The notes below the pieces were generated by a model that saw only the letters and a list, made by a program, of their open reading frames with translations, searched no databases and was not told the origin of the DNA. The translations under genes were made by a program, and so were the position numbers. From Nitrosopumilus sp. (lineage in GTDB: Archaea; Thermoproteota; Nitrososphaeria; Nitrososphaerales; Nitrosopumilaceae): a stretch of DNA of 64,000 bases. This document shows positions 10,127 to 55,483 of the stretch, piece by piece. How positions within the stretch are numbered: position 1 is the stretch's first letter; the number at the start of each line of letters is the position of its first letter. The DNA is taken from assembly GCA_965207445.1 (NCBI GenBank), contig CBDBLX010000002.1, forward strand, positions 480,001-544,000. Direction: 5' to 3'.

Positions 10127-10132
10127 CTTGTA

Positions 10133-14697: not shown

Positions 14698-14800
14698 TAT
14701 GTTGTAAATGACGTATACTGTAAATGACTATGTTGTAAATGACTATGTTGTAAATGACTATGTTGTAAATGACTATGTTGTAAATGATGTATACTGTAAA
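14698..14800. repeat. Intergenic 15-bp tandem repeat (tatgttgtaaatgac), about 6-7 copies with variants
   Basis: Directly visible between the convergent hcd and signal peptidase genes. Confidence 0.9.
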
Positions 14801-21192: not shown

Positions 21193-22471
21193 TTATTCTG
21201 ACTCCGCACGATCGAGCTTGGCAAGTGTTTCTTTAATGTTCTTCATAATCCCTCTAATCTCTTTTTCATCTTCATCATCTTCATTCTCATCAATTTCTGG
21301 TTGTGGTTGAGTTGGTTGTGGTTGAGTTGGTTGTGGTTGAGTTGGTTGTGGTTGAGTTGGTTGTGGTTGAGTTGGTTGTGGTTGAGTTGGTTGTGGTTGA
21401 GTTGGTTGTGGTTGAGTTGGTTGTGGTTGAGTTGGTTGTGGTTGAGTTGGTTGTGGTTGAGTTGGTTGTGGTTGAGTTGGTTGTGGTTGAGTTGGTTGTG
21501 GTTGAGTTGGTTGTGGTTGAGTTGGTTGTGGTTGAGTTGGTTGTGGTTGAGTTGGTTGTTGAGTTGGTGGTTGAGTTAGTTGGTTGTGGTTTGGTTTATC
21601 TTGGTTTGTTTATTTTTGGTCTGTACTGTTGGGTTGCTTTTTGATCTATTTTTCTCTGAATTGGTTCTGGTGTGGCTCTGACCTGTCTTCTGACATTTTG
21701 TATTTCTGGGTTTATGATTACTCTTTTTGGTTGTTGTTGTGTATTACTGGCAGGAGGTTGCTGCTGAACAGGTACAAGTATATCTGTTGCAGTCGACTGT
21801 GTCTTTTTTGGCTTTGGCGTGTCATATGGTGTAAACTTTGAACTTGACGGAATGCTTGTCAGTGTTGTGATCTCAAATGAACCTGGCGAATGTAAGCCAA
21901 CCCTTGGAATATTTGGTGTGGGTGATATTGTCTCTGCATCTTTTGTAGCATGTGATGTTGTTTGTGCTTGCGTGTCTTTTGTTGAATTTGTTAATTTTGA
22001 TCTTGCTATCTCTGTTGATGCTTTTTCATCTTTTTTCGATTCTGATAATTCTTGTGTTGCTTTGATGTCTGCAACTTTTGTTGCAATGTCATACATCTTT
22101 GTATCTAGGCTTGATAGTTTCTGATCCATCAAAGTGACAAGCCCATCACCCACAGGGCCTAAATCTGGATGATTTTTTGAATCTTCTAGCTTTTCTAGTC
22201 TTGCCATTACAATACTTAACTGATGTTGATACCTTGCTAGCAATTTTTCTTTATGTTCCCTTGGCATCGTCTCCCATTCTTTGGATTGATACAGTCTTGT
22301 TACGGTCTTTGCAAGTATCTCTTTTTCTATCTTGAGTGTCTTTATCTGATTTTGAATTTGTGAGCTTGCACTTAATGTAAGTAATTGATGAGTATTTTTT
22401 GTTCTTGCCCTAACTGCTACTGCTGTGGCGATTCCTGCCAACGAGCTTAATAAAAGAGCAACCTCTTGCAT
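21193..22471 (-). pseudogene. Hypothetical coiled-coil protein interrupted by a stop and frameshift at the edge of a (PTQPQ)n repeat
   Basis: The ORF 21596..22471 stops at 21596. A different frame then reads (PTQPQ)17-PEIDENEDDEDEKEIRGIMKNIKETLAKLDRAESE* and ends at 21193, next to the rpiA start. Confidence 0.65.
21301..21555. repeat. 15-bp perfect tandem repeat ttgtggttgagttgg x17, degenerate to about 21590
   Basis: Counted directly. Confidence 0.95.
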
Positions 22472-37994: not shown

Positions 37995-40900
37995 ATGGCA
38001 TTAAAACCACCTAACAAACAGCTTGCAAACAAAGCTTTTTTGGCACTAGAGTCACATCGATTAAAACATGCATTCTCATTTGATCCACTGCTCTCTATGC
38101 GCGTCTCAAATGTAGATTCGCTTCCGCACCAGATAGAAGCAGTGTATGAACATGTGCTCAAAAAACATAGAATTCGATTCATGCTTGCACATGACCCTGG
38201 TGCTGGCAAGACGATTATGGCAGGTTTAATACTCAAGGACTTGAAGATGCGTAACATTGTCAAGCGTGTACTAGTTGTAGTACCTGGACAGCTTCGTGAG
38301 CAGTGGAAATGGGAGCTGAAGAATCGTTTTGATCTAGACTTTGATATAGTGACTAGGGATACCTTTACACAAAAGGGGCGCACTGGGGTGTGGGAAGATG
38401 ATCTCTTGGTCACATCGATTGACTTTGCAAAGCGCGATGATGTGTTAAAATCCCTTCGAGATGCTCGGTTTGATCTTGTAATTGTGGACGAGGCTCATAA
38501 AATGAGTGCATATTCATACGGACGAACAACAAGCAAAACTAAACGATATCATCTCGGAGAAGCACTATCACTGTCCTCAAAACACATGTTGTTTTTGACT
38601 GCTACCCCACACAAGGGCGATGCTCAGAACTTTAGACTATTGTTAGATTTACTAGAACCTGGGTTTTTCTCTGCTGCAGGTATGATTGAAGACTCTGTGC
38701 GAGAAGGGTTCAATCCTGTATTTTTGAGACGTGCCAAGGAGGATATGGTGGACTTTGATGGAGCTCCCTTATTTGTTCCTAGAGAGGTGCGTACACCTGA
38801 TGTACGTCTCTCAAAACATGAAAAGACATTGTATACTGCAATGTCAAAATACGTGACAGAACAATACAACTTGGCAACTCGTTCTGTCAAAAGTCACAAT
38901 ATTACATTTGCACTTATCATACTTCAACGACGCTTTGCATCGAGCATATACGCCCTGACAAAGTCACTCAAACGTCGCATGGATAAGCTAGAGCAGATTG
39001 AAAGAGCTGCTGAAAAGGTATCTTTTGATGATATATCTGATGACTATGTTGAAAAAGTCGATGAAATGTCTGAAAAGGAAAGATGGGAAGAAGAACAAAA
39101 ATGGGAATTAATTACTGCTGCTCAAAATATGGATGAACTCAGGGCGGAAATAGACATTATTGCAGACTTGATACAAAAAGCTCAAAAGGTGATAGGTTCT
39201 GAAGCAAAACTATTTCAACTCAAAGAGATGCTTGAGAATCTCGACAAGACAAACCCTAATGAAAAGATTCTCATCTTTACAGAATCCAAGGATACATTAG
39301 ATTACCTAACAGAACATGTTCGATCATGGGGATACTCGGTCAACAATATACATGGTTCGATGGGTGGAACTGAGAGAAAAGAGGCAGAAAATATATTTAA
39401 AAACGATACTCGTATCATGGTTGCCACTGAAGCTGCAGGTGAGGGAATAAACCTACAATTTTGTAGACTCATGATAAATTATGATCTGCCATGGAATCCA
39501 AACCGATTAGAACAGCGAATGGGTCGAATACACAGATACGGACAAAAACTTGATGTGAATATATTTAATCTGGTCATTGCTGATACCCGTGAAGGTGAGA
39601 TATTAATTAGACTTTTTGAGAAGCTTGAACATATAAGATCTGTCATGGGAAATGACAAGATATTTGATGTAATCAGTGACATTGTTCCTGGAAAGAGCCT
39701 TGCACAACTCATGTTAGATGCAACTGTAAAATCCAAAGGACAAAAAAAGATCATATCTGAACTTGACACAATAATGGGGGACACTGAAGCTGTCAAGGAA
39801 CAGATGCAAGACAACTTTACCTCTAGACGTATGGATGATAAGAGTTTAAAAATGCTACAGGCAACTGTTCGTGAAAATAGTCTTGTTCCTGAGTATTCTA
39901 AAAATTTGTTTTGTGATATCGTAGACACCGCAGGTGGTAATGTGAAGAGTGGTGATGATTATGAAGGACTAACGACAAACATTACCGTACCCAAATTACT
40001 GTTATCTGATGATCATGATTCATCAAAGGATATCACGGCAGTCTTTGATGCATATGCACACGAGCAGATACCTAATACTGATTTAGTGACGTTTGGGCAT
40101 GTTATGTTTGATGCTGCGCTTGAATGGGCCATGTCTCAATTCACATCGAGTGCTATGGATGGAAAGACAACCGTACTAGACCCGACTGGAAGACTTGATG
40201 GCAATATTGCATTTTATACTGGCAGTGTGGTTTATGGAATAACTGGTGAGCAAGTATCATCTCATATGATCGCATGTATTGTTGATCTCAAGGCAGGTAC
40301 AGCAAAATGCATACCATCATCAGTTATCTTGGATCTTGATTGGAATTATGACAAAAAGACAGATGATGACTTTATGGATTCTGAGGGTATTGAATATGTG
40401 CAAAAGATGGCAACTGATGCTGTTAATACTCAGCTAGACTCGTATGCAAGTGCGATAGCTGATGAGGGGCGTATACAGGCTAATATGGCTCAAAAGTATG
40501 GACTTCACTCATTGGATGCCTTGCTTGATGGGATCGAATCTGATATAATGCAACTGTTGGAGAAGAAACGCCGCGGCGTCAAGGCCGATCTGGCAATATA
40601 TAACAAGAGACAGGATCGTATCAAATACAGAACTGCTCGACGTAACATGGAGGAGCGTATAAAATCCGATACAAATTTGACTGTTGATAATATAAAGTGC
40701 GTTGGAATGATCAGAGTGATGCCTGGAACTTTTGCTCAATCTGCCAAGAAACTCTCTGCTGTTGAATTTGCCATTGAATTTGAACACGCCCGCGGCCGTA
40801 CTCCTGTGAATATGTCTCATGAATGGAATGGATATGACATACGCTCTGCTCCAATGGATAGTGGTGGTGGTAGTAATAGTGGTAGTAGTGGCAACAACCG

Positions 40901-41150
40901 TAGTAGTAGTAGTAGTGGCAGTGATGTCAGGTACATATTGGCACTCAAAGAGCAAGACGGTTGGGTGTATTTTACTACCAATGAATGGCTCAAGGCCTTG
41001 ACACTTGGGGAGAGATATTATCTTTATGTGATACGCGGTGTGATGCAAGAGCCACTCGTACTATCTGATCCTGCTCATGTATTGCGATCTGAACGACGAG
41101 GTACTACATACTGTGTAAGTGTAGACCGTATACTATCGTCATTATCATAA
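37995..41150 (+). CDS. SNF2-family helicase with C-terminal DUF3883-like domain (catalytic motif degenerate)
   Basis: PHQIEAV, DPGAGKT, DEAHK, LTATPH, TEAAGEGINLQ, WNPNRLEQRMGRIHRYGQ; C-terminal E..RGR.P...GYDIRS...RYI...TTNEW..A...YYLYV. Confidence 0.88.
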   Translation: MALKPPNKQLANKAFLALESHRLKHAFSFDPLLSMRVSNVDSLPHQIEAVYEHVLKKHRIRFMLAHDPGAGKTIMAGLILKDLKMRNIVKRVLVVVPGQLREQWKWELKNRFDLDFDIVTRDTFTQKGRTGVWEDDLLVTSIDFAKRDDVLKSLRDARFDLVIVDEAHKMSAYSYGRTTSKTKRYHLGEALSLSSKHMLFLTATPHKGDAQNFRLLLDLLEPGFFSAAGMIEDSVREGFNPVFLRRAKEDMVDFDGAPLFVPREVRTPDVRLSKHEKTLYTAMSKYVTEQYNLATRSVKSHNITFALIILQRRFASSIYALTKSLKRRMDKLEQIERAAEKVSFDDISDDYVEKVDEMSEKERWEEEQKWELITAAQNMDELRAEIDIIADLIQKAQKVIGSEAKLFQLKEMLENLDKTNPNEKILIFTESKDTLDYLTEHVRSWGYSVNNIHGSMGGTERKEAENIFKNDTRIMVATEAAGEGINLQFCRLMINYDLPWNPNRLEQRMGRIHRYGQKLDVNIFNLVIADTREGEILIRLFEKLEHIRSVMGNDKIFDVISDIVPGKSLAQLMLDATVKSKGQKKIISELDTIMGDTEAVKEQMQDNFTSRRMDDKSLKMLQATVRENSLVPEYSKNLFCDIVDTAGGNVKSGDDYEGLTTNITVPKLLLSDDHDSSKDITAVFDAYAHEQIPNTDLVTFGHVMFDAALEWAMSQFTSSAMDGKTTVLDPTGRLDGNIAFYTGSVVYGITGEQVSSHMIACIVDLKAGTAKCIPSSVILDLDWNYDKKTDDDFMDSEGIEYVQKMATDAVNTQLDSYASAIADEGRIQANMAQKYGLHSLDALLDGIESDIMQLLEKKRRGVKADLAIYNKRQDRIKYRTARRNMEERIKSDTNLTVDNIKCVGMIRVMPGTFAQSAKKLSAVEFAIEFEHARGRTPVNMSHEWNGYDIRSAPMDSGGGSNSGSSGNNRSSSSSGSDVRYILALKEQDGWVYFTTNEWLKALTLGERYYLYVIRGVMQEPLVLSDPAHVLRSERRGTTYCVSVDRILSSLS

Positions 41151-41222
41151 GTACAAGCGCTCAGGCCAAGTTGCCATTATGGCTGTGTAAGTGTAGACCG
41201 TATACTATCGCCATTATCATAA
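41111..41222. repeat. 40-bp direct repeat (41111-41150 and 41183-41222, 1 mismatch) around a 32-bp spacer
   Basis: ctgtgtaagtgtagaccgtatactatcg(t/c)cattatcataa occurs twice and duplicates the 3' end of the SNF2 gene. Confidence 0.9.
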
Positions 41223-41318
41223 TATTTGACATACAGCTACAGTTTGAGATTTTTTGAGACTTTTAGTTGTGTGTAATAATAGTCACCATCACAGTCCACA
41301 TCACAGTCCACATTATGG

Positions 41319-43025
41319 TCATTTTTCTAGTTCGTCTAACAGGGCGCGTCTAGTAGAATACTCTTCTTTTATCTTGTTTAACAACTCTTCGTATCGCTCT
41401 TTACCCTTTGGCATCTCTTTAAGTTTTCCTAAATACTTTGAGACTCGCTTATAGTGTTCTCTATTACTTTTTTCACCTACAAATTTAAAGAGTTTGTCCA
41501 TATAGCATGCTGTGTATCTCTTTGAGCTTTTACGCATCAGTTTTGCTCTATATGACAAGACAAGCTCAACATCTGATGCTTGTTCTAACACATCCATGGC
41601 CTCTTCTGGCATCTCTTCTTTTATGCACATCTCTACTGCATTTTTAGGTGATATGTCTGTCAGTCTTGATATTGTCTGTTGTATGTTATCTTTCCATTTG
41701 GGCAGTACTCGCTTGAGTCTTATTATGTAATCCCATTCACCTGTTATTGCATATAGTTTTTCCAATATACGGCCCCTATACTTGTCATCATTGTCACCAA
41801 ATAATTTGTATGCGGCCTCTAGTACATTTGCGTCATCAGGAAATGTCTCTGTTGCCTTTATTGCTATATCTTTAATGTTACCTGCTGTTGTTACTGATAA
41901 TAATGATGCTGATGATGCTGACGATGATGATGATGCTGTTGCTGATAATGTGTACAATGCCTTCAAGTATAATACGCATATACCACTGTTCAGGGGAAAA
42001 CGTTCTGCAAGTAAGTCCACTATCTTTGCGTGTTGTTTCATCTGTTCTAATACATATGACTGCATGCGTAAAATCTCAACTAACTCCTCATTACTGATAT
42101 CTCTGTCATCTGGAATAACTGCAAGTTCAAGCCAGAACTTAAAATCACTTTGTGTATTGCATATTGTCTTTAGTCCATCATAATAATGTCTGGAAAACTT
42201 GGCACTTGCAGTACCATTGTTATTTGTAGCTTTTTCAAACAAATATGATATATAATCCCGTTTTTTCTCGTGGTCTAGACGTTCCCTTAATATGGTCTCT
42301 ATCATACCCTCGAGTGCTTCTATAAAACAATCTGCATAATACCCTGTATCATCTTTTACTTCATTTACTCTCTTTGATATTGTCTCTGCAATAATTTTGT
42401 ACATACCTGCGGACTCTGAATTATCTCCTTCACGTCTCTTTCTACGTGCCTCATCGAACTGTGGTTTAAAATCTATCATCTCAGTTATCTTTCCGTCATC
42501 TTCTCTCTCTGCATTTTTGTAAAGTGTATTCATATCTCCTGAATACTTACTTACATTATAGGCTGATTTTAGTTTATTTTTTGTAATGAATTTGTGTAAC
42601 ATATTACTGTCATTTGACATTATTTTTGCAAGAAACTCCAAGGCTTGTTCTGGTGTTATATTTTCAAGAAGATTTGATGTAGTATCTTCTGTTACGTTCC
42701 CATAGATGTCAAAGCTACTTGGATTGTGGTTTAGTTGAAACAAGACTGCTACTATACAATGACACATTGTGTCTTTTTGATAAATATGTTCACATGTACA
42801 TTTTGTATAGACTTGATGGTCAAACGTTAGGGTAATTTCTGGATAGTTGATCTCCATATTAATATCACATACAGTTGCAGTTATTTCATTCTCATCTATT
42901 TCCATCTCTAAAATGTCACCGTCCTCAAAGATCCGTTTGCCTTCTTTGTACGACTTTGGGTCGGCAAGATATTCAATATCTTCTAGACCTGGAATATTCA
43001 TATCTTCGTTTTCTCTTGATGACAT
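41319..43025 (-). CDS. SWIM zinc-finger domain protein with helical C-terminus
   Basis: KCTC-x9-CHCIVAVL (SWIM-like; the usual CxH is CxC here), preceded by SYKEGKRIF. Confidence 0.75.
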   Translation of the reverse strand: MSSRENEDMNIPGLEDIEYLADPKSYKEGKRIFEDGDILEMEIDENEITATVCDINMEINYPEITLTFDHQVYTKCTCEHIYQKDTMCHCIVAVLFQLNHNPSSFDIYGNVTEDTTSNLLENITPEQALEFLAKIMSNDSNMLHKFITKNKLKSAYNVSKYSGDMNTLYKNAEREDDGKITEMIDFKPQFDEARRKRREGDNSESAGMYKIIAETISKRVNEVKDDTGYYADCFIEALEGMIETILRERLDHEKKRDYISYLFEKATNNNGTASAKFSRHYYDGLKTICNTQSDFKFWLELAVIPDDRDISNEELVEILRMQSYVLEQMKQHAKIVDLLAERFPLNSGICVLYLKALYTLSATASSSSSASSASLLSVTTAGNIKDIAIKATETFPDDANVLEAAYKLFGDNDDKYRGRILEKLYAITGEWDYIIRLKRVLPKWKDNIQQTISRLTDISPKNAVEMCIKEEMPEEAMDVLEQASDVELVLSYRAKLMRKSSKRYTACYMDKLFKFVGEKSNREHYKRVSKYLGKLKEMPKGKERYEELLNKIKEEYSTRRALLDELEK

Positions 43026-43329
43026 AATATAACGTAAATGGATGGTTATTTGAATTTGACTATACGTATTTTTCTCAAATTTGAATGATTGTGTGTAATT
43101 TTACGTATTTGATGACATTTGATCTTTGAGATTATCTCTATATGTGATTTAATTCTTGTATGCCAAATGGCATAATTTGTGACAAATGAGTTGTGCAGAC
43201 GTTTGCCTAACATAAAAGTTATGTAATTTTCTAAATTTGTATTATACTTTGTATAATTCGTATAATTGTTGTATTGTAAAAATAATGTAAGAACAATACT
43301 TTTATATATCACAATATTGTAGTATTTGT

Positions 43330-44232
43330 ATGAATGAAAAAACCAAACAAGTTCTAGAGGATTTAGTCAGCAAGTTTGCAGATGGTACTGACAAACTGCC
43401 CGAGGCAATCGCAAAGTCGTACATAATGGCACCTGCTGTACCGTGCTCAAAGTGGACAATAAACAACCGTGTACTGACACTGTTAAATGGCACTACTGAT
43501 GCACGTGGGTACAGGCAATGGCAGCAAGTAAACAGACATGTCAAAAAAGGTGCAAAGGCAATTTACATTTTGGTTCCCAAAATGATTACTGTAAAAGACG
43601 ATAATGCTGATTCCCAAAAAGACTGTGAAAAAAACAATAACAGTAAAAATGACAAAGACTGTAAAGACGACAAAGAGCGCAAAAAGGCAAAACAATGCAT
43701 TGGCTTTTCAACGTGCCCTGTGTTTCGGTACGAAGATACTGAAGGTGACCCTCTTGAGGAGTATGTGCCCAAAGAGTTACCTCCGTTGTTTGGCCTTGCA
43801 AAGTACAATGGTATAGATGTCCTATATGCCAATACAATATCTGGTGAATATGGGAGTATCAATGTAGATGATAAACATATCACATTGAGTACCGAATCAC
43901 CTGATACATATTTGCACGAGCTGGTTCATTATTATGATCTGCGCGAGCGCAAAAACATCAAGCATGGACAAGATGCAACGCAAGAGACTGTAGCACAATT
44001 GGCAGCATGTGTATTGGCACGCATGTATTCTGATTATGATGCTAGTCGATACACCTGGGATTACATCGCCGGGTATGCCGATGCCACAGAACCTGCAAAA
44101 GTCGCCAAACAATGTCTCAAGGTGATGGAGCGCGTAGGCTCTATAATCGATGCAATCATATCTGATGCACACAAGATTGGTGCTGTTGGTAACATATCTG
44201 ATGCACACAAAATCAGTCATGTTACTGCATAA
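43330..44232 (+). CDS. ArdC-like antirestriction / ssDNA-binding protein with zincin-like HExxH domain
   Basis: WTINNRVL, RGYRQWQQVNRHVKKGAKAIYILVP, PVF...DTEG, LHELVH, ETVAQLAA. Confidence 0.8.
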   Translation: MNEKTKQVLEDLVSKFADGTDKLPEAIAKSYIMAPAVPCSKWTINNRVLTLLNGTTDARGYRQWQQVNRHVKKGAKAIYILVPKMITVKDDNADSQKDCEKNNNSKNDKDCKDDKERKKAKQCIGFSTCPVFRYEDTEGDPLEEYVPKELPPLFGLAKYNGIDVLYANTISGEYGSINVDDKHITLSTESPDTYLHELVHYYDLRERKNIKHGQDATQETVAQLAACVLARMYSDYDASRYTWDYIAGYADATEPAKVAKQCLKVMERVGSIIDAIISDAHKIGAVGNISDAHKISHVTA

Positions 44233-44990
44233 TCACCATTCACATCTCTTTTTTTAATTACTTCAACTGTATACATGTTTACAAAGTGATCTTTTTATTT
44301 ACTTGTATATTTAAAATTAAAAATTTAATATGACTTTTAAAATTGAAATTATAAATACTCTATTAGATATTGATCATAACTGTGTGCTTACATTGATGTA
44401 AATTATCCATGTGAACCAAGCTCTTTGTATGTAATAATGAAATCATACATCTAGGTGTATTTGGCAACATACTTGTTTGCATATAGTATCGTACATAGTA
44501 ATTAAAACAAGGCTAAGGATGGTCTGCAGGTATTGTCCGTCTCGCTGGGGCTAGGTGTGAAATGCCTCTTGGGCCCCTGCCTCAAAAACCCTGGTGAACT
44601 TTGCAAACCTCTGCTCGTCAGTTATGATGTTGGTGATGGGGATCGTATAAAGCAGCCCGTGTCTGGAAAAGTATACGGCACTGCGATATCATGATGTCCT
44701 TCCGACAGCCCACGGGCTCGCCCACACCTGCCCCGCGCGTCTGCATGTGTACGCGCAAAGCCATGCGCGCGTCCGTTTAAGGTTGTCAGGACACGACACC
44801 ATCCGGACTGGCCGAGCCTTCGGTACGGACTCTTCTCATTCTCAAAACGTCCTGTTAGACAGATCCGGAACGCCACCCAAAAACCCGGCAGAAAATCATC
44901 ATCACCAATGCTGAAATCGGATCCGCTTCAAAGATACAGTCCCTTAAGTTATACGCCTACAAAAACCGGACCTTTGAACACGGAATCGTC

Positions 44991-45989
44991 TCACAGGTGC
45001 TTTACCACGAATCCTGACTCCTTGCAGCCGTCATAGTTGTGGCGTATCTCTGTGGGCCAACCCTTTCCTGTATCGAGAAGATCAAGTGATTGCCTCATTT
45101 CCCTGAGCCGGTCATAATAGTCGTGGTTTCTCTCAATCAGACACTCTGTAAATTCTGACTGTACAAGCGAGTCGCTCTTTTGCAGGTTGCAGTTCTGGCA
45201 GCTGAGAACCAAGTTCCATGGATCGTCGTCAAACACGTATGACCACGGTATAAAGTGGTCGACGTTTATGTAGCCCCTCTCCAGTCTCGCACAGCAGTAA
45301 AAGCAGTGGGTGGAATCTCTGAACATGGTGCGGTACTTGTTAAGGCTGCCCCTCCTTGCGTTGGCGTTCTCCAGCTTTGAGACTAGCTTGGGCATGGTGT
45401 TTATCTTTTCAAGATACCGTGTCCACTCTACCAGGACTGCCTTTAGTAGCACGTCGTAATGACTGCTCAAAAACTTGGAGACTCCATCCTTGAAGTGGAT
45501 CATCTTTTCCTTGTCGTTGTGGGTGTAGAATACGTTTGCATCTTCCTTGCTGAGCCCCTTGATGTTCTGGAACCTGGGTACGACTTGGGACGTACCGCTG
45601 CTTTCGTTTCCAAACACCCTCTTCATCATACTCTCTTCTGCAGCCTCCTTGGACTCCTTATCGACGTCTTTGAATATCTTGGCGGGATCGTTTCCAAATC
45701 TCTCCTGTATGATCTGCACGGCATGGGGAATGCTTTTCGTGCTAAAACTCTGTTTTATTCTGAATAGGGACTCTTGGTGCCAATAGTACTTTACAAAGGA
45801 TTCTGCAAGATAGTCATACGTCACGTGATCCCTGATGCTGGGATCTGATCCGTAGTCTGACTGCTTTCTACAGTGCTCAAGCAGGGCCCTGGCCAATGCG
45901 AACTTGTACGTGTTGCTCTTGCTCCCCTTAGTCAGTATGCGCAGAAATGCCTTCCGTAACTCGGCATCAGACGGAACCTCGGATCCCAT
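44991..45989 (-). CDS. HNH endonuclease, putative restriction/defence nuclease
   Basis: N-terminal SNTYKFALARAL; CFYC...VDHFIPWS...WNLVLSCQNCN..KS. Confidence 0.88.
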   Translation of the reverse strand: MGSEVPSDAELRKAFLRILTKGSKSNTYKFALARALLEHCRKQSDYGSDPSIRDHVTYDYLAESFVKYYWHQESLFRIKQSFSTKSIPHAVQIIQERFGNDPAKIFKDVDKESKEAAEESMMKRVFGNESSGTSQVVPRFQNIKGLSKEDANVFYTHNDKEKMIHFKDGVSKFLSSHYDVLLKAVLVEWTRYLEKINTMPKLVSKLENANARRGSLNKYRTMFRDSTHCFYCCARLERGYINVDHFIPWSYVFDDDPWNLVLSCQNCNLQKSDSLVQSEFTECLIERNHDYYDRLREMRQSLDLLDTGKGWPTEIRHNYDGCKESGFVVKHL

Positions 45990-46837
45990 GGGTAAATTCG
46001 TCTGAGACCAAATATATTCTGGTATGTAATGGCGGTTCGTTGCTCAAAGAATCTGTCGCACCAATTACGTGTACATCACAAATCATCGTGATAATGTCTA
46101 AGAGATACTGTCTGTACTGCGCATGACAGGCGGCACGAGACGGCATATGTTTTGGTGGTCTTTTCTTTTTTTATGTAGGAACGTTTGGCTGCTGAAAGTC
46201 ACTTTTTGTAAAAGATTTTTGCTTTACAGTATATGAGTCTCCGCTCCTTTTGCTGGTGGATTTTTTGATGACTATTTTGCTCTCGCATATGATGAGTTGA
46301 CATACTTGGGATTACACATCCTGTCACGAATCTGTGGTGATGGATTGACATATCTGGTATGTACGATTGTTTGATGTGACTATAACCTAGACCCCTGGAA
46401 TAAAATGACAATGTCCGTACCATGGCAAGTGTAGATAGTCTACATCGGTAGTTTGCAATGTGTTTTATGTGATTTTATTTGAATAATCTACAATATTGTT
46501 GAACATTAATGATCATACTTGATCAGATCAAATAAAAAGTATACTATATGAGAATATACTAGTACCTCTGATTTTATATGAAAAATGAGATACTAGAACA
46601 TCAATATAATTAGGACAGATAAATTATAAAGTTTTACGAAAACGATTCGTCGATCTCAGACTAAAGATATCCACCATATGTAACAGCAAGTATGGTATGG
46701 ATGATTATCTTGGTATACACTTACTACCATGTCACTCAACAATACCTGTGTGTAAATGCAGCAACACACAAAAGAAAACACAACAAAGCTAACTATTTTA
46801 GAAAAAACGCGTGTATACACACACCATCTGAAAATAC

Positions 46838-47176
46838 CAGTAGTTCGCAATGTGCTCAATTTTTAATGATCTTATTTCTAATTATGCAGTGCGGCAGATT
46901 TACAATGGTAAGGAACCACCGTGTAGGTTCGATTACTGTTGATATTTTTTGGAATGTTGTTGTATGGCTTGTGGGTAATGGCAAGGTACGAAAATTACGA
47001 CGGACTTGTAGATGAAAAATTATTTACAATGGATGCGTTTGTGGATTCAGTTGCCGGATTGATCAGAAAACTGCTTTAATGGGAATTAAAACATAGTAGT
47101 TACTTGCCATAGTAAATGTATCACACTATATAATTAAAAATAAGATCATTAAAATTGGACACATTGCGAACTACTG
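46838..47176. mobile_element. ISH3-family-derived non-autonomous element (339 bp) with long inverted ends and 4-bp TSD ATAC
   Basis: Ends are cagtagttcgcaatgtg...cacattgcgaactactg, flanked by atac on both sides. The interior is the transposase 3' end also seen at ~49970-50225 and ~55297-55483. Confidence 0.75.
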
Positions 47177-47243
47177 ATACTGCGCTCTTTGACCCCCTGC
47201 ACATCAAGTTAATTTTCATATAGGGTGTAGGTATAGAACAGAC

Positions 47244-48431
47244 ATGTCCAGACATGTAAACCCCTTCAGGCCGGGTTCGGGCCTGCAGCCCCCGTATCTT
47301 GCAGGAAGGGATGTGGAGCTGGAGAGGTTCTCGCAGATGCTACAGCAAATGCAGGAAGGACAGGTTCGCAACCTTATGGTACAGGGCCTGAGGGGCGTGG
47401 GAAAGACAGTTCTCCTGAAAGAGTTCGTCAAGATATGCACCGACAACAAACTCCTCCCAGTTACGCGGCTCCAGTTTAGTAGCAAGCACTCGGATCCCGC
47501 AGAGTTCACCCGGGCCCTGCAGCACGATTTGAACAACGCTATGGGAAGCCTCTCTAGAGTGGAAAAGACAAAGCAAAAGCTGCAGGATGCTGCCCGGCAG
47601 ATAAAGCCGCAAAAGATCGACGTCATGGGAGTCGGGTGGGAATTTAAGCACGATCCTGCCAGCCGCATACCGCTGGAGAACCAGATAACCGATTATCTAG
47701 AAAAATGGTGGAAAGTCGTACAGGAAAGCGGCTACGACGGGATAGTGCTCCTCTTTGACGAGTTCCACACGGTGAGTGATGTAAAGTCCAACAGCTGGTA
47801 CATACTCACGGACTTCCTCGGAGCGGTAAACGAGATCCAGTCCAATGGGTGCAGGTACTCGCTTGTCTTGTGCGGACTGCCTACTCTTATGCCCAACGTC
47901 AAGGCTGCGCGCTCTTATGCCGAGCGGATGTTCGGCGTGATGAACATATCCAACTTGGACAAGGAAAACGCCAGAGCCGCCATATCAAAACCTCTGGTGG
48001 ATACGGCCTGGCGCTTCTCAGATGACTTGGTATCGTCAATTGTGCGGGACACTGACAGTTACCCATATTTTATCCAGTTCTTTTGTAGTGAGATCATACT
48101 TCGTACTGACAAAGAACATGTCACTCTAGACGACTACGAAAAAATCAAGGATCAGATAACAAGAGATCTCGGACGCGACTTCTTTGATCAGCGCATCGAG
48201 CCGTTAAGCGCGACACAAAGGCTCGTGCTGTACTCAGCCGCCTCCCTCACTGATCTGGATCTGGAGTTCTCTTCTATCCAAAAGTCATTGAATGTGGGCA
48301 AGGGAGCGCTTTCCAGTCACTTGAAGCGTCTGGAAGAGAAGGGACTGATCTACAGGTCAGGGCGGGGGACTTATCGTCTTGCCATGCCGTTGCTTGGCAA
48401 ATATCTACGATTGAGGATGCAGTCAGAATAA
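47244..48431 (+). CDS. AAA+/P-loop ATPase (AAA_16-like) with C-terminal winged HTH
   Basis: NPFRPGSG..PPYLAGR, GLRGVGKT (Walker A), LLFDEFH (Walker B), YPYFIQ, LSSHLKRLEEKGLIYRSGRGTY. Confidence 0.88.
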   Translation: MSRHVNPFRPGSGLQPPYLAGRDVELERFSQMLQQMQEGQVRNLMVQGLRGVGKTVLLKEFVKICTDNKLLPVTRLQFSSKHSDPAEFTRALQHDLNNAMGSLSRVEKTKQKLQDAARQIKPQKIDVMGVGWEFKHDPASRIPLENQITDYLEKWWKVVQESGYDGIVLLFDEFHTVSDVKSNSWYILTDFLGAVNEIQSNGCRYSLVLCGLPTLMPNVKAARSYAERMFGVMNISNLDKENARAAISKPLVDTAWRFSDDLVSSIVRDTDSYPYFIQFFCSEIILRTDKEHVTLDDYEKIKDQITRDLGRDFFDQRIEPLSATQRLVLYSAASLTDLDLEFSSIQKSLNVGKGALSSHLKRLEEKGLIYRSGRGTYRLAMPLLGKYLRLRMQSE

Positions 48432-48477
48432 CGCTCAGACAACCGGCCTTGGTAGGATTCGAGTCTGCAAATCATGT

Positions 48478-49867
48478 TTGGCGCCTACCAAAGTCGACAA
48501 AGTCTACAAAGTCGACAACATTGTGGACTCCCGCGCCCGACGCCTGCCAAAGTCTACAAAGTCTACAAAGTCTACAAAGTCTACAAAGTCTACAACATTG
48601 TGGACTCCCGCGCCCGACGCCTGCCAAAGTCTACAAAGTCTACAAAGTCTACAAAGTCTACAAAGTCGACAAAGTCGACAACATTGTGGACTCCCGCGCC
48701 CGACGCCTGCCAAAGTCTACAAAGTCTACAAAGTCTACAAAGTCTACAAAGTCTACAACATTGTGGACTCCCGCGCCCGACGCCTGCCAAAGTCTACAAA
48801 GTCTACAAAGTCTACAAAGTCTACAAAGTCTACAAAGTCGACAACATTGTGGACTCCCGCGCCCGACGCCTGCCAAAGTCTACAAAGCCTCTACAAAGTC
48901 TACAAAGTCCCGCGCCCGACGCCTGCCAAAGTCTAACATTGTCGACAAAGTCTACAAAGTCTACAAAGTCGACAAAGTCTACAAAGTCGACAACATTGTG
49001 GACTCCCGCGCCCGACGCCTGCCAAAGTCTACAAAGTCTACAAAGTCTACAAAGTCGACAAAGTCTACAAAGTGGACTCCCGCGCCCGACAACATTCTAC
49101 AAAGTCTACTCGACAACATTGTGGACTCCCGCGCCCGACGCCTGTCTACAAAGTACAAAGGCGACGCTACAAAGCCAAAGTCTACAAAGTCTACAAAGTC
49201 TACAAAGTCTACAAAGTCTACAAAGTCGACAACATTGTGGACTCCCGCGCCCGACGCCTGCCAAAGTCTACAAAGTCTACAAAGTCTACAAAGTCTACAA
49301 AGTCTACAGTCAAGTCTACACATTGTGGACTCCCGCGCCCGACGCCTGCCAAAGTCTACAACATTGTGGACTCCCGCGCCCGACGCCTGCCAAAGTCTAC
49401 AAAGTCTACAAAGTCGACAAAGTCTACAAAGTCGACAACATTGTGGACTCCCGCGCCCGACGCCTGCCAAAGTCAAAGTCTACAAAGTCTACAAAGTCGA
49501 CAACATTGTGGACTCCCGCGCCCGACGCCTGCCAAAGGCCAAAGTCTACAAAGTCTACAAAGTCTACAAAGTCGACAAAGTCGACAACAAAGTCTACAAA
49601 GTCTACAAAGTCGACAAAACAACATTGTGGACTCCCGCGCCCGACGCCTGCCAAAGTCTACAAAGTCTACAAAGTCTACAAAGTCTACAAAGTCGACAAA
49701 GTCGACAACATTGTGGACTCCCGCGCCCGACGCCTGCCAAAGTCTACAACATTGTGGACTCCCGCGCCCGACGCCTGCCAAAGTCTACAAAGTCTACAAA
49801 GTCGACAAAGTCGACAAAGTCGACAACATTGTGGACTCCCGCGCCCGACGCCTGCCAAAGTCTACAA
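48478..49867. repeat. Composite tandem array: about 18 copies of a 32-bp GC-rich core separated by 1-6+ copies of the 9-mer caaagtc(t/g)a
   Basis: Core caacattgtggactcccgcgcccgacgcctgc; first units are 77, 86, 77 and 86 bp; middle portion is degenerate. Confidence 0.95.
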
Positions 49868-50225
49868 AGAAACTCATCAAAACCATCCCGGAGACTTATC
49901 GCAAGCGTTGGATAACAGAGACCGGATACAGAGTGATAAAAAAATACGACTTCAAAGACCCAGTAACGCTTTGCAGGTTCAATTATTGTTGATATTTTTT
50001 GGAATGCTGTTGTATGGCTTGTGGGCAATGGCAAGGTACGAAAATTACGGCGGATTTGCAGGTGGAAAATTATTCACAATGGATTGTTTATGGATTCAAT
50101 TGCCGGATCAATCAGAAGACTACTTCGGTGGGAATTAGAACACGGTGGTTCCTTGCCATTGTAAATCTGCCGCACTGCATAATTAAAAATAAGATCATTA
50201 AAAATTTGCACATTGCGAACTACTG
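49868..50225 (+). pseudogene. ISH3/IS4-like transposase 3' remnant with right terminal repeat
   Basis: YRKRWITETGYRVIK (YREK motif), frameshifted LLIFFGMLLYGLWAMAR, ends in cacattgcgaactactg. Confidence 0.8.
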
Positions 50226-50520
50226 ACGTGGAGGGGGTTATCATGTATTCTATGCAGATGCATAAAACCGGGGAGTATCTTTTATCCTGCCCGGATTCTG
50301 GGGGGGGGGGGGGGGGATGGCCGGCAGAAAAATGTGTGGCAGATGCGGCTGCCCCTCCCCCAGGCACACCACCTCGTAATGCGTATCATGGGGGCAGACG
50401 GCACAGAAGAGCCGACGCGCCAAAAGTGCTGGGACTGTGGGTGTGAAGGAGCGGGGACGTAAACCGCGTCCGTAATAAGCAAGAATCTATACACTCCTTG
50501 CCATACGGGCGAATGTTGGC

Positions 50521-50898
50521 CTAGACCGCTGCAAAAACGGCCGCCACCGCGATCGTGACTGCGGCAGAGATAGATGCCAAAATTGTCAGTAATTTGAGCA
50601 TGTTTCCTCCTACAGATCTGTGTATCATGTGCGTACCAAAGCCAGCTGCCGCGCCAACAAGTACCGCGCCCGTTGGCCCCAGAAACCCTGACAGGGGAAA
50701 TGATAGAAAAAATCCCAGCAGCGCCGATAGTGCAAGGCCCATTCCTGTGACGTTTTTTTCACGCATGGCGAGGATCAGAAATGCCACTGCGCTGCCGACT
50801 GTAGCTGCCACCATTACGATTATGGCACTGCTTGAAAAGTAGTATAATTCTGCAATGTTTGCAAAAATAAAAAAATGAGTGGGCGGGATTAAATTCAT
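50521..50898 (-). CDS. Small membrane protein resembling a fragment of the Amt ammonium-transporter fold
   Basis: AATVGSAVAFLI...KNVTGMGLALSALLG..LSFPLSGFLGPTGAVLVGAAAG resembles the Amt K...G...G.laG.vaitP.aG.v.p..A.iiG segment; judged by eye. Confidence 0.4.
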   Translation of the reverse strand: MNLIPPTHFFIFANIAELYYFSSSAIIVMVAATVGSAVAFLILAMREKNVTGMGLALSALLGFFLSFPLSGFLGPTGAVLVGAAAGFGTHMIHRSVGGNMLKLLTILASISAAVTIAVAAVFAAV

Positions 50899-51215
50899 TT
50901 AGCTTCCGTAAACAGTGGATGATATGAACGTTCCCGGCGCGCTGTAACCTGACGGACAGAAATTCAGCGTCTTTGTACCGTAGCTTGGAACATACGGACT
51001 ATAGGAGACATTGCAAGTGTGTACCCACTGGCCGTTTACTCTGACGTTGTGGTAGTTGATTGTGTCTACTGTCTGTCCGCCGTTTGTGGTTTTTGGTAAC
51101 TATTTTGTTGGACACTTAAATTCTTATGATTATATACTATGATAATTTTGGTTTAAAAAATTTGATCAAAAACCCTAATAATTTAATCTAGAGGGTATTA
51201 AATCAAAACGCTTCC

Positions 51216-51293
51216 ATCTATCATTAAGTGGAAATAAAATGATAGACAGGAACGATATTAGATCATCACAAAAATGTGATTTAAGCGATCAGT
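51216..51293. repeat. 78-bp direct repeat, copy 1 (identical to 53527-53604), with internal hairpins
   Basis: atctatcattaagtgg...ttaagcgatcagt. Confidence 0.9.
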
Positions 51294-51754
51294 AGATATT
51301 ATGCACAATGACACAATCAAATTTTTGTGACCATATTAGGTATGACTGATAAGATCATATGTTTAAGCTTAAATGCATTTATAACAAAAAACCTGCCAGT
51401 ATTGATAATTATATATGATTAATTAATTAATAATATATGTTCATAAAAAGATCTAAATATATGGGCCTATAAATAATTGTATGAAATCTAACTTAGATTC
51501 TACGATATCGTGTGATGGGCGCGACAGTGACGCTTTTGATACAATCTATCTGGATTCAGATGAGTGTGTTAATGGACGTGATCGATCGCGAAATGTCCAA
51601 AGTACAAAAAGTGGACAGAGGCGTCACTCACAGAGATAATTATTGGGCGCCATTGAAAAGAACTGTCTACTGATCAAAGCGCGCGCAGGTGGACGGGATT
51701 TGACAAGCGTGGACTTGATCTGATTTGGACATCTTTTTCTGAGCATGGGAGGAA

Positions 51755-53290
51755 ATGGAGCGCGCAGAAATTGCACGAAGACGTGAATCCAAATTCGTGC
51801 AGGAAAGCGCGGTCCGAGGCCTATGGCAGACGTGGCAGCAGGCAAAACAACATTCCAATGTACGCAATGATCCTGCAAGGGGTTCTGCGCCAGGCAACAG
51901 GTGCAAACTAGAGCCGTACATCATGGTTCTGGCACTCATACGCAAATACCGCAACGAAAGTGAAGGAACGTTGGGAGACATGTTTGGCATAAACCAGTCA
52001 ACTGTATCCACTTACCGATCGCATACTTGCAGAGACGCTGCCAACTCCTGAAAAAATTATGAATCTCATAAAAGAGATTGGCACTGCCAAAGAATTTGCA
52101 AGGTTATTCCCAGATGATACAGGTGAGTCGATATTGATGGAACACACGTGCGATTTGCAAGGCCCCTCAAGGCAGAAAGATTCTATGATATCATACAAGA
52201 AAAAGTATCCCAGTGGAAACACGGTCATAATGACATCAGCAGACGGCCTGATACTAAGCAAGTAAAACATACAACGGTCGGGTCCATGACATTGCAATAA
52301 CGCGGGATTTTCTAGAGGATATGGGCCAATTTGGTAAAATGCTTCAAGGCAAACTCAACAATACAGAGAACCAAAAACAGCAATCAGAACAGGCAGATAC
52401 AGAGAACCAAAAACAGCAATCAGAACAGGCAGATACAGAGAACCAAAAACAGCAATCAGAACAGGCAGATACAGAGAACCAAAAACAGCAATCAGAACAG
52501 TTCCAGAACGCAGATACAGAGAACCAAAAACAGCAATCAGAACAGGCAGTACAGAGAACCAAAAACAGCAATCAGAACAGGCAGATACAGAGAACCAAAA
52601 ACAGCAATCAGAACAGGCAGATACAGAGAACCAAAAACAGCAATCAGAACAGGCAGATTCAGAACAGGCAGATGTACAGGCGTAGAGAACCAAACAATCC
52701 ACTTTGAAAAAGCCCAAACAACTACGCGACTGCACACAAACAACCCAAAACAAACATCTGCAAGAAGAGTCATCAGAGTCCCATCTAAAGAAACAGAGAT
52801 AAGGATACTCCGCGGGCTAGTCGCGCTTGAAAAGTAGTATAATTCTGCAATGAATCTACTAAAAAATCTGAACAAAAGCGGTCCGTACTTGATGCATCTA
52901 GAAGACTCGAGGCCATTGTGGTCAAACAAGACAAGAGTTCTGGGCGATTCGGGATTTCAGGGATTAAAACAAGACATGATGTTCACTACCCGTTTAAGAA
53001 CTCAAAGAAGATGAAAATCACACCCGAGCAAAAAGCCGTACAATCGAGAATTGAGCAAGATACGCGTTTTGGTAGCCAAGCACTTTAGGCGCGTATCTGA
53101 GATGGACAACGGCAGTCTAGACGAGTTCAACAAAGAGTTTAACGTTGCCTGTGGATTGGCCAACCTTCGACACTACGTACCGGCACATACAACTACTGGG
53201 CCTCGAAGCTTACCAACATACGATAAACGTGCTAACATATGGCCGGTATCACACACCGGCCGCACGATCAAAATATACACAGTCAGCTAA
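51755..53290 (+). pseudogene. IS5-family (DDE_Tnp_4 / HTH_Tnp_4-like) transposase pseudogene with frameshifts, stops and an internal repeat
   Basis: LALIRKYRN.SEGTLGDMFGINQSTVS (HTH), NTVIMTSADGLIL, VLGDSGFQG, ITPEQKPYNRELSKIR, FNVACGLANLR. Confidence 0.75.
52361..52680. repeat. 36-bp tandem repeat (atacagagaaccaaaaacagcaatcagaacaggcag; TENQKQQSEQAD), about 8 copies
   Basis: Directly visible inside the transposase pseudogene. Confidence 0.9.
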
Positions 53291-53526: not shown

Positions 53527-53604
53527 ATCTATCATTAAGTGGAAATAAAATGATAGACAGGAACGATATTAGATCATCACAAAAATGTGATTTAAGCGAT
53601 CAGT
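53527..53604. repeat. 78-bp direct repeat, copy 2
   Basis: Identical to 51216-51293. Confidence 0.9.
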
Positions 53605-53804: not shown

Positions 53805-55136
53805 ATGGTGTGTCTGAGATGCTACAAGATGCTAAACACGTTAAAGACACAAAATGAAGAATTGGCCAAGGACAATAAAAAATATCAAAAGATCAACAAA
53901 GAGCTAAGGGCCAAGAAAAACGGCATCAAGGCAGTCACTGCTAGTGATAAACCTGACAAAACGCCAGGAGAAAATAAACCAAGGGGCAGGACCCAAGGGG
54001 CAAAAAGCTACCAAAACTACGCGCCCTACAAACATAACCAGAACAGAGGTGGTAGATGGCACTACATGCCCACAATGCAAAAACCCACTCTCATCGACCA
54101 TAACAGACGAGTATGACAGGGTGGTCCAAATTATCACAACAATCACAGAGTATGTCAAGTTTGATATCAAACGTCGCTGGTGTAGTAAATGCAAAAAGTG
54201 CAGCAACCCATTTCAAACGTAAGGCCTCATGCACGCCGTTCAACTAATCATTCTGCAACCACAGTCACACTAAACATGAAAGGTCTATCACACGCAAAGA
54301 CTGCAGAATTCAGCAAAGATGTCATGCAAGTTGAGATCTCCCCATCAGCGGCATATCGTGACAAGATATCACATGTCAAAGCACAAAAATCAAAACACGA
54401 TGAGATTAAACAAAAAATTTTGAACAAAAGCGAGTTAGGGTGTGATGAGTTTGACTGGCCTGGGGCAAACAAAAAACGTGCGTGCGGTTTAATTGCGCTC
54501 GGAGACGACTGTTGTCTAATAGAGATAACTGACAACAAAACAATATCCACCCTCAAAAAATTCCTGCCAAAATACAATGGACTAGTACGGCATGACTCTA
54601 ATCCATCATGGGGTCACATTGGAATACAACATCAGATGTGTTTGTCACATCAGACTCGACTGCCAAAAAAAGACATCAGATATGTAAATCCAAAAGGTGC
54701 AGTACTGCGATTTCTCAACACATTAGTTCAAATATTCAAACAATTCTATAAAGCAGATGAAATAGACGATCCTCACACACGACAAGTGGCCTCATATTGT
54801 TTGGACAGCCAACTGCGCCAACTAATGAACAATGATTGGACAAAGGAAAAAGACTGGGACGGTGACAAAGAGGGCATAATAAACAGATTCAAAAAGAGAT
54901 GGAGACGCGAAGGATACCATATGAGCACCTTTTTACACATAAAGGGCATACCACCAGACAATAATGACGTTGAACGAACTAATCGAATATTTGTATCCAT
55001 AAAAAATGATGGTGGTGGAAACAGAACGTCGCGTGGTATGGAGGCCAACTCAATATTATTCACACTGCTTGCAACAGGTAAGATCAGCGGCGAGATCTTT
55101 TTTGATATGCTGTGCAAGGGATACAAACCTGGCTAA
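53805..55136 (+). pseudogene. IS66-family transposase (TnpC) split by two frameshifts
   Basis: Coiled-coil N-terminus (53805 ORF), CPQC...WCSKCKK zinc finger (53944 ORF), then GCDE, VRHD, HQMCLSH, PDNNDVER and GNRTSRG (54189 ORF). Confidence 0.8.
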
Positions 55137-55296
55137 AACTACAGAATCATCTATGTGCCCATCTGCGTATTGTAATCAACTACGCATTATTATTGTCAAT
55201 TGATTATATATGAATATACAACGCCGAGATCATCATGATCGGAAAAATGCGCATGATCATTTACCTTATGTGTGCGCTTCAAAAAGCAAAATAGTT

Positions 55297-55483
55297 ACGA
55301 AAATTACGACAGACTTTGGTGGAAAATTATCCATAATGGATGCGTTTGTGGATTCAATTGCCGGATTGATCAGAAGACTGTTTCGATGGGAATTAAAACA
55401 TAGTAGTTACTTGCCATAGTAAATCTGCCGCACTGTATAATTAAAAATAAGATCATTAAAATTGAGCACATTGTGAACTACTG
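55297..55483 (+). mobile_element. Third copy of the ISH3-like right end
   Basis: Homologous to ~46987-47176 and ~50037-50225; ends in cacattgtgaactactg. Confidence 0.75.

Follow-up and report, generated by a model that had tools for sequence, protein, structure and literature searches.

Tandem 9-mer arrays behind thaumarchaeal ATPase-winged-helix genes: a candidate iteron-like binding platform

The window analysed here, a stretch of 64,000 nucleotides from a Nitrosopumilus sp. contig (CBDBLX010000002.1), contains a gene for a small ATPase with a C-terminal winged helix-turn-helix (wHTH) domain and, directly behind it, a tandem array in which a constant 32-bp core alternates with runs of a 9-mer. 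The locus raises the question of what such an array does, and whether it serves the protein encoded beside it. The original prediction for this DNA proposed a multivalent binding platform for that protein, and named in advance the co-occurrence of the array with this ATPase clade as a check; the co-occurrence holds in every copy of the clade that we compared, and we give about an even chance to the reading, drawn from sequence comparison, that the array is an iteron-like binding platform acting in cis for the adjacent ATPase.

A two-level array behind the ATPase gene

The array was described beforehand as two-level, about 1.4 kb long and starting shortly after the ATPase stop, and this is what we find: a 57-bp spacer is followed by 1379 bp of 32-bp cores and 9-mers. 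The estimate of about 18 cores is also a fair one, as tokenising the array yields 14 exact copies, a further two are recovered at up to five edits (the same total of 16 is obtained with a 20-nt central core piece), and two partial cores lie inside scrambled stretches; about four cores are thus damaged overall. The 9-mers comprise 60 units of CAAAGTCTA and 20 of CAAAGTCGA, 80 exact units altogether, in runs of one to six per core; each core leads directly into T-type units, and G-type units precede the next core. The opening 326 bp consists of two 163-bp higher-order units that are 99% identical. Fourteen identical 32-mers exclude chance, and within the window the core has no second site and each of the two 9-mers is found once outside the array.

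A constant repeat of about 32 bp alternating with sequence of variable length is reminiscent of CRISPR, but here the 'spacers' are not unique, being one to six copies of one 9-mer, and the annotated neighbours in the window and at the other loci described below include no cas genes; we therefore reject this candidate.

Arrays of the same form at related loci

A profile-guided search of species-representative genomes recovered 27 loci, among them a thaumarchaeal-type group (L001–L013, 45–89% identity) from Nitrosopumilaceae, Cenarchaeum and Nitrosopumilus metagenome-assembled genomes (MAGs), with one member, L006, filed under a gammaproteobacterial MAG. Together with the window copy and a second, partial ATPase in L005 (L005b) these give 15 thaumarchaeal-type copies, and all 15 have a tandem 9-mer array just after the stop, on the coding strand. 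The distance from stop to array is 0–141 bp, and 0–58 bp in most intact modules; in the fragment L009 the array lies about 111 bp past the alignable end. All of the arrays are built from 9-mers of the form CAAAGTnnn together with a longer, locus-specific and mostly GC-rich core. Exact tandem duplicates of the AAAGTNNNN unit form 13 clusters, every one of them in the post-ATPase position, and the 543,824 bp compared, which include 14 bacterial loci, contain no other on either strand. None of 17 distant loci has a 9-mer array; these are the 14 bacterial loci from the scan and three plasmid or phage loci with 27–31% identical homologues (two examined from 96 plasmid records, and one phage-collection record). 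In one of the bacterial loci, on an Azotimanducaceae chromosome (L022, 7201–12383), the distant ATPase is present as four or five tandem paralogues with 27–47% local identity, again without 9-mer arrays.

The last three bases of the 9-mer differ among loci. They are CTA or CGA in the window, L001 and L004, CGA in L010, AGG in L002, CTC in L003, CTT in L007 and L005b, TGA or TCA in L005, TGG in L006, TGT in L008 and L013, CGG in L009 and L011, and TTA in L012; CAAAGTTGT and CAAAGTCGG are examples of 9-mers from paralogues other than the window copy. The higher-order periods are equally varied: 41, 77 and 86 bp in the window, 40 bp in L010, 64 in L013, 73 in L006, 112 in L005, 100 in L008, 98 in L003, 53 and 107 in L012, 72 in L011 and 48 in L005b. 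We considered and rejected a coding repeat, given the 32-bp core and periods that are not multiples of three in 8 of the 10 arrays with a higher-order period (L011 and L005b are the two others). Translation of the window array rotates through KST, QSL and KVY, as had been noted; two of its plus-strand frames are fully open (488 and 554 aa), the third is interrupted once, within a scrambled unit, and the 488-aa translation has no match in the protein collection at E ≤1e-3.

The arrays are between 25 bp and 1.59 kb long, with unit identities of 95–100% in most, and the kb-scale arrays outside the window, in L006 (1.59 kb), L005b (0.77 kb), L012 (0.6 kb) and L002 (0.57 kb), have 98–100% unit identity. 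L006, on a 36-kb contig (CATQGX010000003.1), has the longest clean array, 21.8 copies of a 73-bp unit; its ATPase groups with the Nitrosopumilaceae copy L011 (64% identity) at 100/100 support, and the contig is either a mis-binned archaeal one or the product of cross-domain transfer. L005 carries two tandem modules (8294–9688 and 10001–11999), of which the first, L005b, has a truncated ATPase consisting of the lid and wHTH alone, followed by a perfect array of 16 48-bp units, and the second is full, with five 112-bp units; both arrays are then followed by the same short AAAGTTGGC pair. In L003, 12 perfect copies of an unrelated 9-mer, TGTATCGCC, lie at 4042–4152 ahead of the CAAAGTCTC-type array, in which ATTGTCTCC alternates with AAAGTCTCC; the ATTGT variant in this array resembles the way in which the window core, ACATTGTGGAC, begins.

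Stronger conservation of the 9-mer than of neutral sequence

The ATPase genes of the window, L001 and L004 are separated by a dS of 0.5–0.6, with 74% identity at third codon positions and 73% identity over the aligned bases of the spacer, whereas their 9-mers are identical; on this comparison the 9-mer is conserved beyond what would be expected of neutral sequence. L010, whose ATPase is 50% identical, has ten copies of CAAAGTCGA with an unrelated 22-bp core, in an array that begins on the base right after the stop codon. The AAAGT part is kept in hosts of 34% to 68% GC, and many cores share a degenerate CAAAAY at the start and a GCCTRG motif near the end.

These observations bear on a simple alternative, that the array is a neutral, slippage-prone variable-number tandem repeat hitch-hiking with the ATPase, the 1.4-kb window array being a large allele. 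Copy number and higher-order period do vary at every locus, the high unit identity within arrays indicates recent expansion, the cores are not conserved among distant loci, and the window array, parts of which are scrambled, lost its end to an insertion sequence (IS) with no obvious consequence. A neutral flank should decay, however, and the 9-mer form persists among ATPases that are 41–50% identical and across the above range of host GC; position and strand are constant in all 15 modules, the short GCCTRG motif recurs at core ends, and there is no such array elsewhere in the 544 kb compared. We regard this explanation as quite unlikely.

An ORC-like ATPase with a winged helix

The ATPase has the Walker A motif GVGKT and the Walker B motif LLFDEFH. 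Its residues 19–188 match Pfam AAA_16 (PF13191) at 45.1 bits, above the gathering cut-off of 32.6, and ATPase_2 (PF01637) falls below its own cut-off (30.7 against 33.2 bits); residues 321–372 match MarR at 27.5 bits (cut-off 24.6), and the C-terminal domain as a whole matches DNA-binding MarR/ArsR families. An AlphaFold2 model has a mean predicted local distance difference test score of 76, rising to 84–96 in the wHTH region, where helix 1 spans residues 323–334, helix 2 342–349, the recognition helix 353–365 and the wing, a beta-hairpin, 369–379. With a dN/dS of 0.10, the ATPase is evidently functional and under purifying selection.

The nearest structures in a Foldseek search are SSO1545 (2fna), Sulfolobus solfataricus Cdc6/Orc1 on origin DNA, and PAB2304 (2qen), with ORC subunits, MalT and NB-ARC proteins ranking lower (template-modelling scores of about 0.4–0.56 overall). 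The parallel to Orc1/Cdc6 initiators that had been drawn for this protein thus stands at the level of fold (scores of about 0.5), but not at that of family, as TIGR02928 (Orc1/Cdc6) is matched at 24.5 bits against a cut-off of 181.3, and over the Walker A region alone. No Rep family (Rep_3 or similar) is among the Pfam hits, and a PDB sequence search and the ESM Atlas returned generic AAA_16 or MarR signals only. There is no significant PADLOC match to a protein of a known anti-phage defence system: the best hit, to Csa3 at E 4.7e-5, covers the wHTH portion alone, and hits to BrxD and Avs4 have E >1e-3. At least 5,344 full-length homologues reach E ≤1e-3 among 8,000 candidates scored, and 21 homologue clusters are 78–91% identical to the ATPase, many of them on contigs of 1.5–3 kb.

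Variation in the recognition helix and the 9-mer

Comparison of the wHTH domains with the 9-mers may provide clues to specificity. The wHTH scaffold (HL-RLEEKGLIY, and RG-Y in the wing) is conserved, and positions 355–359 of the recognition helix vary among paralogues. Where two modules are present in one genome or MAG (L005/L005b, L007/L008 and L009/L013), their 9-mers differ in all three cases, and these paralogues may have diverged in their putative site specificity in a manner resembling initiator/iteron or adaptor/centromere pairs that avoid incompatibility. Lys358 of the recognition helix is present in all four modules with a 9-mer ending in GG (L002, L006, L009 and L011); these fall in three separate, well-supported clades of the ATPase tree, and the nearest relatives of these clades (L012, L003/L007, and all others, respectively) have neither feature. 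Such co-variation matches the prediction of direct base readout, and is suggestive although not significant.

A proposed binding platform for the adjacent ATPase

We propose that each 9-mer (C-AAA-GT-nnn) would serve as a single binding site for the winged helix at the C terminus of the ATPase, with the conserved wing and scaffold reading the invariant AAAGT and the variable first half of the recognition helix reading the last three bases. Head-to-tail runs of sites could then support the cooperative assembly of the ORC/STAND-like ATPase domains into a nucleoprotein filament, which would be punctuated by the GC-rich cores with their second short motif, GCCTRG. As the sites lie 0–141 bp past the stop and the DNA-binding domain is translated last, newly made protein may load preferentially in cis, by analogy with cis-acting initiators. 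Indirect support for binding comes from the conservation of the 9-mer, the different 9-mers of co-resident paralogues and the suggestive co-variation of helix and 9-mer, and the MarR-type winged helix and ORC-like fold make the ATPase a plausible DNA-binding oligomeriser.

Several points weigh against this reading. Joint descent of gene and array alone would explain their co-occurrence, the constant orientation and part of the co-variation. Only three independent contrasts are available for the latter (sign test, median p 0.5, range 0.25–0.5), a number with which significance is unreachable; L005b is an exception, having Lys358 with a CTT ending, and the window (ALSSH) and L010 (TVYNH) have the same 9-mer with different helix residues. 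The bacterial homologues examined (24–33% identity) lack arrays, and the protein family can therefore work without one. Sites spaced every 9 bp leave little room for a protein of 45 kDa. Gene integrity and array state do not correspond consistently, as L005b is truncated yet has a perfect 16-unit array and the three stop-bearing copies have short ones, although short-read collapse may confound this comparison. There is no 9-mer site upstream of the gene, which makes autoregulation unlikely, and no AT-rich unwinding element, motor of the ParA/ParM/TubZ type, integrase or effector domain was found; of the known roles for such arrays (origin, centromere, operator), none is fully matched.

As to what a platform of this kind would do, our guess is that it most likely titrates, anchors or maintains horizontally acquired DNA in the manner of iterons, rather than having a housekeeping role. 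The candidate roles are to maintain acquired DNA or control its copy number, to act as an extra origin or anchor, to form a conflict system or to serve as a roadblock, and each has a chance well short of even. A broader proposal is that ammonia-oxidizing archaea carry an unrecognised autonomous two-part element in which an ORC/STAND-like ATPase polymerises along a satellite array matched to it, the array being built, homogenised and expanded by protein-driven repeat turnover, and the pair acting either as a portable replication or segregation determinant or as a horizontally spreading DNA-based conflict module that diversifies into non-cross-reacting specificities within one genome; as a whole we consider this doubtful.

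We know of no role for small AAA_16/ATPase_2 winged-helix proteins, widespread as they are in archaea and bacterial plasmids, and binding of the ATPase to the array, if it occurs, would give the first handle on their function. The paralogues would then constitute a natural series of matched protein/DNA pairs, with one recognition helix and three variable bases, and a compact cassette of initiator plus site might serve as a replicon, an anchor or an orthogonal tool for DNA targeting; thaumarchaea, to our knowledge, lack genetic tools. We found no published description of a module of ATPase plus array in a search of openly available article texts, nor is one given in the passages matched in two thaumarchaeal genomics papers (PMC7848895, PMC6563490).

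Comparison with known systems

Iteron replicons and control iterons are a close parallel, in that short tandem direct repeats lie beside the gene of a DNA-binding protein expected to bind them, an arrangement present in 15 of 15 modules here with the binding predicted; site specificity also diverges among co-resident iteron systems, and their arrays work in cis, as may those described here. Non-origin control iterons at ori2-inc of Vibrio cholerae titrate or handcuff the initiator RctB (PMC6090056, which also mentions the datA locus). The window protein differs from such initiators in being AAA_16/ORC-like with one wHTH rather than of the Rep_3 or RctB type. Moreover, its putative sites are 9-bp units at a 9-bp pitch, rather than iterons of 17–22 bp spaced at about 22 bp, and they are interleaved with a longer repeat and lack an AT-rich unwinding region. 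The control iterons incA of P1 and incC of F lie just downstream of repA and repE.

Orc1/Cdc6 proteins share with the window ATPase an AAA+ domain, a lid and a C-terminal winged helix (2qby, 1fnn and 2v1u are among the Foldseek hits), as well as a gene beside the presumed sites, and cases of one-to-one initiator/origin specificity are known among archaea with multiple origins. However, origin recognition boxes (ORBs) are longer, are often inverted and flank an AT-rich element, whereas the window has dozens of direct 9-mers with GC-rich cores behind the gene of a protein outside the family. The array has a GC content of 50% and contains direct repeats only, with no AT-rich segment. Two features that the origin-like version of the original proposal calls for, inverted sites and an AT-rich unwinding element, are missing, and a canonical ORB-type origin is rejected on these grounds; the right flank has been replaced by an IS. 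DnaA and its 9-mer boxes are similar in combining an AAA+ ATPase, a C-terminal DNA-binding domain and 9-bp sites, and DnaA forms ATP-dependent filaments on closely spaced sites of the same orientation and has a titration locus, datA, away from the origin. It differs in its unrelated DNA-binding domain, and the arrays described here are perfectly tandem, occur in archaea and belong to systems with many paralogues per genome.

In plasmid centromeres, too, short head-to-tail sites diverge in specificity among systems; the repeats are 11 bp in parC/ParR and 12 bp in tubC/TubR, and a (w)HTH protein coats them to form a helical nucleoprotein complex. In the window, by contrast, a single polypeptide contains both the DNA-binding domain and the ATPase, which belongs to another class of NTPase, and no ParA/ParM/TubZ-type motor was found among the window neighbours or 61 neighbour open reading frames (ORFs) of 13 loci; a par locus is accordingly rejected. 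The best structural matches, the PF01637 archaeal ATPases (SSO1545 and PAB2304) and small AAA_16 STAND-like proteins, have no DNA partner that we know of, and within this family the array association is seen only in the thaumarchaeal clade of at least 45% identity and at none of the 17 distant loci.

The Borg elements of Methanoperedens (PMC9879509) contain near-perfect, A-rich, fast-evolving head-to-tail archaeal repeats that may start at the end of an ORF and whose intergenic units are mostly not divisible by three; almost all are unique and scattered, whereas arrays of the window type have a two-level structure, keep to a single gene family and retain one motif in different species. The intergenic Borg repeats are proposed there to be regulatory RNAs, which raises the alternative that the thaumarchaeal array acts as RNA, either within the 3' untranslated region of the ATPase message or as a separate transcript, with CAAAGU and the cores providing binding sites or being processed into small RNAs, and the ATPase protein as a possible partner. 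The closeness of most intact modules to the stop, the lack of an oligo-T terminator in the window spacer and of any T-run on the sense strand of the window array, and the invariant orientation relative to the gene are as this would have it, and strong local hairpins occur in some units (z-scores of -5.2 in L005b, -3.5 in L012, -2.4 in L011 and -2.2 in L006). The invariant orientation is equally expected from inheritance as a block, however, and the DNA-binding families matched by the C-terminal domain argue for a DNA target. Nor is there a common structure: when one unit from each of 10 arrays was folded on both strands no consistent signal emerged, with sense z-scores from -5.2 to +1.9, -1.2 for the window unit, and 4 of the 10 units folding worse than shuffles. 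L012 units contain T5 runs, expected to be archaeal terminators, and an Rfam covariance-model scan of 44000–53000 gave no match at E ≤1, which leads us to reject a known RNA family. The structured-RNA array suggested earlier is thus not borne out, and we consider an RNA role in general unlikely.

Neighbourhood and mobility of the module

Among 174 ORFs around 14 loci the ATPase cluster alone is common to all, and the next clusters have at most three members; a role of the array as promoter of a conserved neighbour is rejected, as there is no such neighbour. The module lies between ThiC and ThiD-ThiN in L002, between Nop5-fibrillarin and dihydroorotate dehydrogenase (DHODH) in L011, and between CNNM and a PALP enzyme in L003, and some of the remaining modules are inside IS or defence islands. 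In L009, CNNM and PALP genes are adjacent, 149 bp apart, and by gene order, the intergenic DNA being too diverged for nucleotide alignment, this has the appearance of the L003 site lacking its module.

Alignment of the window with L001 and L004 shows homology from a TATA-like element about 30 nt before the ATG, with invariant columns from GTTAATTTTCATATA onward and no similarity upstream of it, to a point within the array; these limits define promoter, ATPase and array as the unit of inheritance. The spacing of the element to the ATG suggests that the ATPase mRNA is leaderless or nearly so. Gene and array are shown to persist and move jointly as a self-contained two-part cassette, one that is dispensable, as L001, L004 and L009 each have one in-frame stop and L005b and L009 are partial. 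The GC content of the ATPase (52%) and of its array stands out from the window background of 38%, indicating that the module was acquired horizontally.

Such mobility would also fit a further alternative, that the sites serve another factor or a mobility function (as recombination or target sites of a transposase or integrase, or as a transcription or replication roadblock) with the ATPase as an accessory. IS or integrase genes lie within a few kb of the module in the window, L004, L009, L010, L012 and L013, the module is present or absent at the syntenic L003/L009 site, its composition points to transfer, and on the P-loop region the Pfam TniB model is marginally above its cut-off (23.5 against 22.4 bits). 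However, no transposase or integrase family is conserved beside the module, and in L002, L003 and L011 it has housekeeping genes on both sides and no mobility gene in the vicinity. The module itself shows no terminal inverted repeats or target duplications, and homology among the three closest copies begins at the promoter and stops in the array. We find this alternative very unlikely.

The window flanks and the state of the array

Coordinates of the module and its flanks are given in Table 1.

Table 1. Coordinates in the window of the ATPase module and the flanking insertion-sequence remnants.
Feature	Position	Strand	Description
Miniature inverted-repeat transposable element (MITE)-like, internally deleted ISH3-like IS copy	46838-47176		left inverted repeat, last ~250 bp of the IS, right inverted repeat
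Promoter-like TATA-like element GTTAATTTTCATATA	47208-47222	+	22-36 nt upstream of ATG
ATPase-wHTH gene	47244-48431	+	395 aa; AAA_16/ATPase_2-type P-loop NTPase, helical lid, C-terminal MarR-like winged helix
Spacer, ATPase stop to array	48432-48488	+	57 bp; no run of ≥5 T
Two-level tandem array	48489-49867	+	1379 bp; 32-bp core plus 1-6 units of CAAAGTC(T/G)A
ISH3-like IS 3' part	49868-50225	+	transposase C-terminal fragment, frameshifted tail, right inverted repeat ending at 50225

As first reported, the array abuts the truncated end of a transposase, which is probably ISH3-like. The fragment at 49870–49992 contains the YRKRWITETGYRVIK motif and has the ISH3 family as its best NCBIfam match (E 1.5e-4, profile positions 246–268 of 298), at 21 bits against a cut-off of 225 with only a 40-aa fragment left; there is also a weak tblastn match of the IS fragment to a haloarchaeal plasmid transposase. 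The array runs directly into about codon 243 of the transposase, and as the 5' two-thirds of the IS is missing, the original right end of the array has been lost. Three copies of one ISH3-like IS 3' end are present in the window (46838–47176, 49868–50225 and 55210–55483), which contains no intact ISH3-like transposase. The MITE-like copy is flanked by a 4-bp direct duplication, ATAC (46834–46837 and 47177–47180), and is directly similar to 49972–50225; its arms (46856–46924 and 47091–47159) are 78% complementary, whereas its left inverted repeat (46858–46924) is 97% complementary to the distant 50140–50206.

Permuted or truncated units occur in four stretches of the array, at about 48851–48950, 49036–49175, 49307–49320 and 49530–49620; they may have arisen by genuine rearrangement or be errors in the consensus of a long-read assembly. 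Some four such units, in a pattern typical of repeat consensus errors, and a run of about 17 G at 50296–50312, just past the IS end, that suggests long-read data, might be taken to mean that the array is wholly or largely an assembly artefact; a 24-nt core piece, moreover, has no match in 185,579 species-representative genomes (the source genome not being among them), and L007 has an N-gap within its array. Independent assemblies of other species have kb-scale arrays at the same position, however (L006, L005b, L012 and L002), and in L001 and L004, which are the closest relatives, this position is again occupied by the 9-mers of the window and by core-like pieces. We therefore hold an artefact to be extremely improbable; although the window copy number could be in error, there is no doubt that the array exists. 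The arrays of L001 and L004 may be collapsed, both being short-read assemblies, and it is of practical note that kb-scale arrays after ATPase genes break or collapse short-read assemblies and that gene callers can read them as long ORFs. A C15 run similar to the G run in the window follows the L011 array, and such runs may be long-read homopolymer artefacts or real tracts.

By appearance the surroundings (36–62 kb) are a defence and mobile-element island, with an Hma/DrmD-like SNF2 helicase, a PtuB-like HNH protein, an ArdC-like protein, an IS66 transposase and a type III restriction-modification system. The defence-type cluster just upstream of the module (37995–45989) contains the SNF2 helicase, a PADLOC match to HmaA/DrmD at E 1.5e-160, together with a PDC-S62-like protein, an ArdC-N-like protein and a PtuB/Cas9-like HNH protein. 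Downstream, 78-bp direct repeats (51216–51293 and 53527–53604; 100% identical, 2311 bp apart) bracket about eight copies of a 36-bp unit (52361–52663) within a short ORF with a Q/E/N-rich peptide repeat; the segment between them adjoins the IS66 transposase (54189–55136) and may be a small mobile or duplicated segment.

The window also contains other repeats. One of these lies at a gene end, at 21298–21591, where about 20 largely perfect copies of a 15-bp unit, TGGTTGTGGTTGAGT, with extreme GC and AT skew and a motif unrelated to that of the ATPase array, begin 5 bp past the stop of a minus-strand ORF (21596–22471, no Pfam hit) and precede a ribose-5-phosphate isomerase gene. Another 15-bp unit is repeated about six times at 14698–14787, 93 bp downstream of an HpaB-type gene (13049–14605) that is 4-hydroxybutyryl-CoA dehydratase-like. 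Finally, a 1612-aa ORF (25609–30447) contains four internal repeats of 1.15–1.2 kb, 98–100% identical, each of which encodes a periplasmic-binding-protein/ANF-receptor domain.

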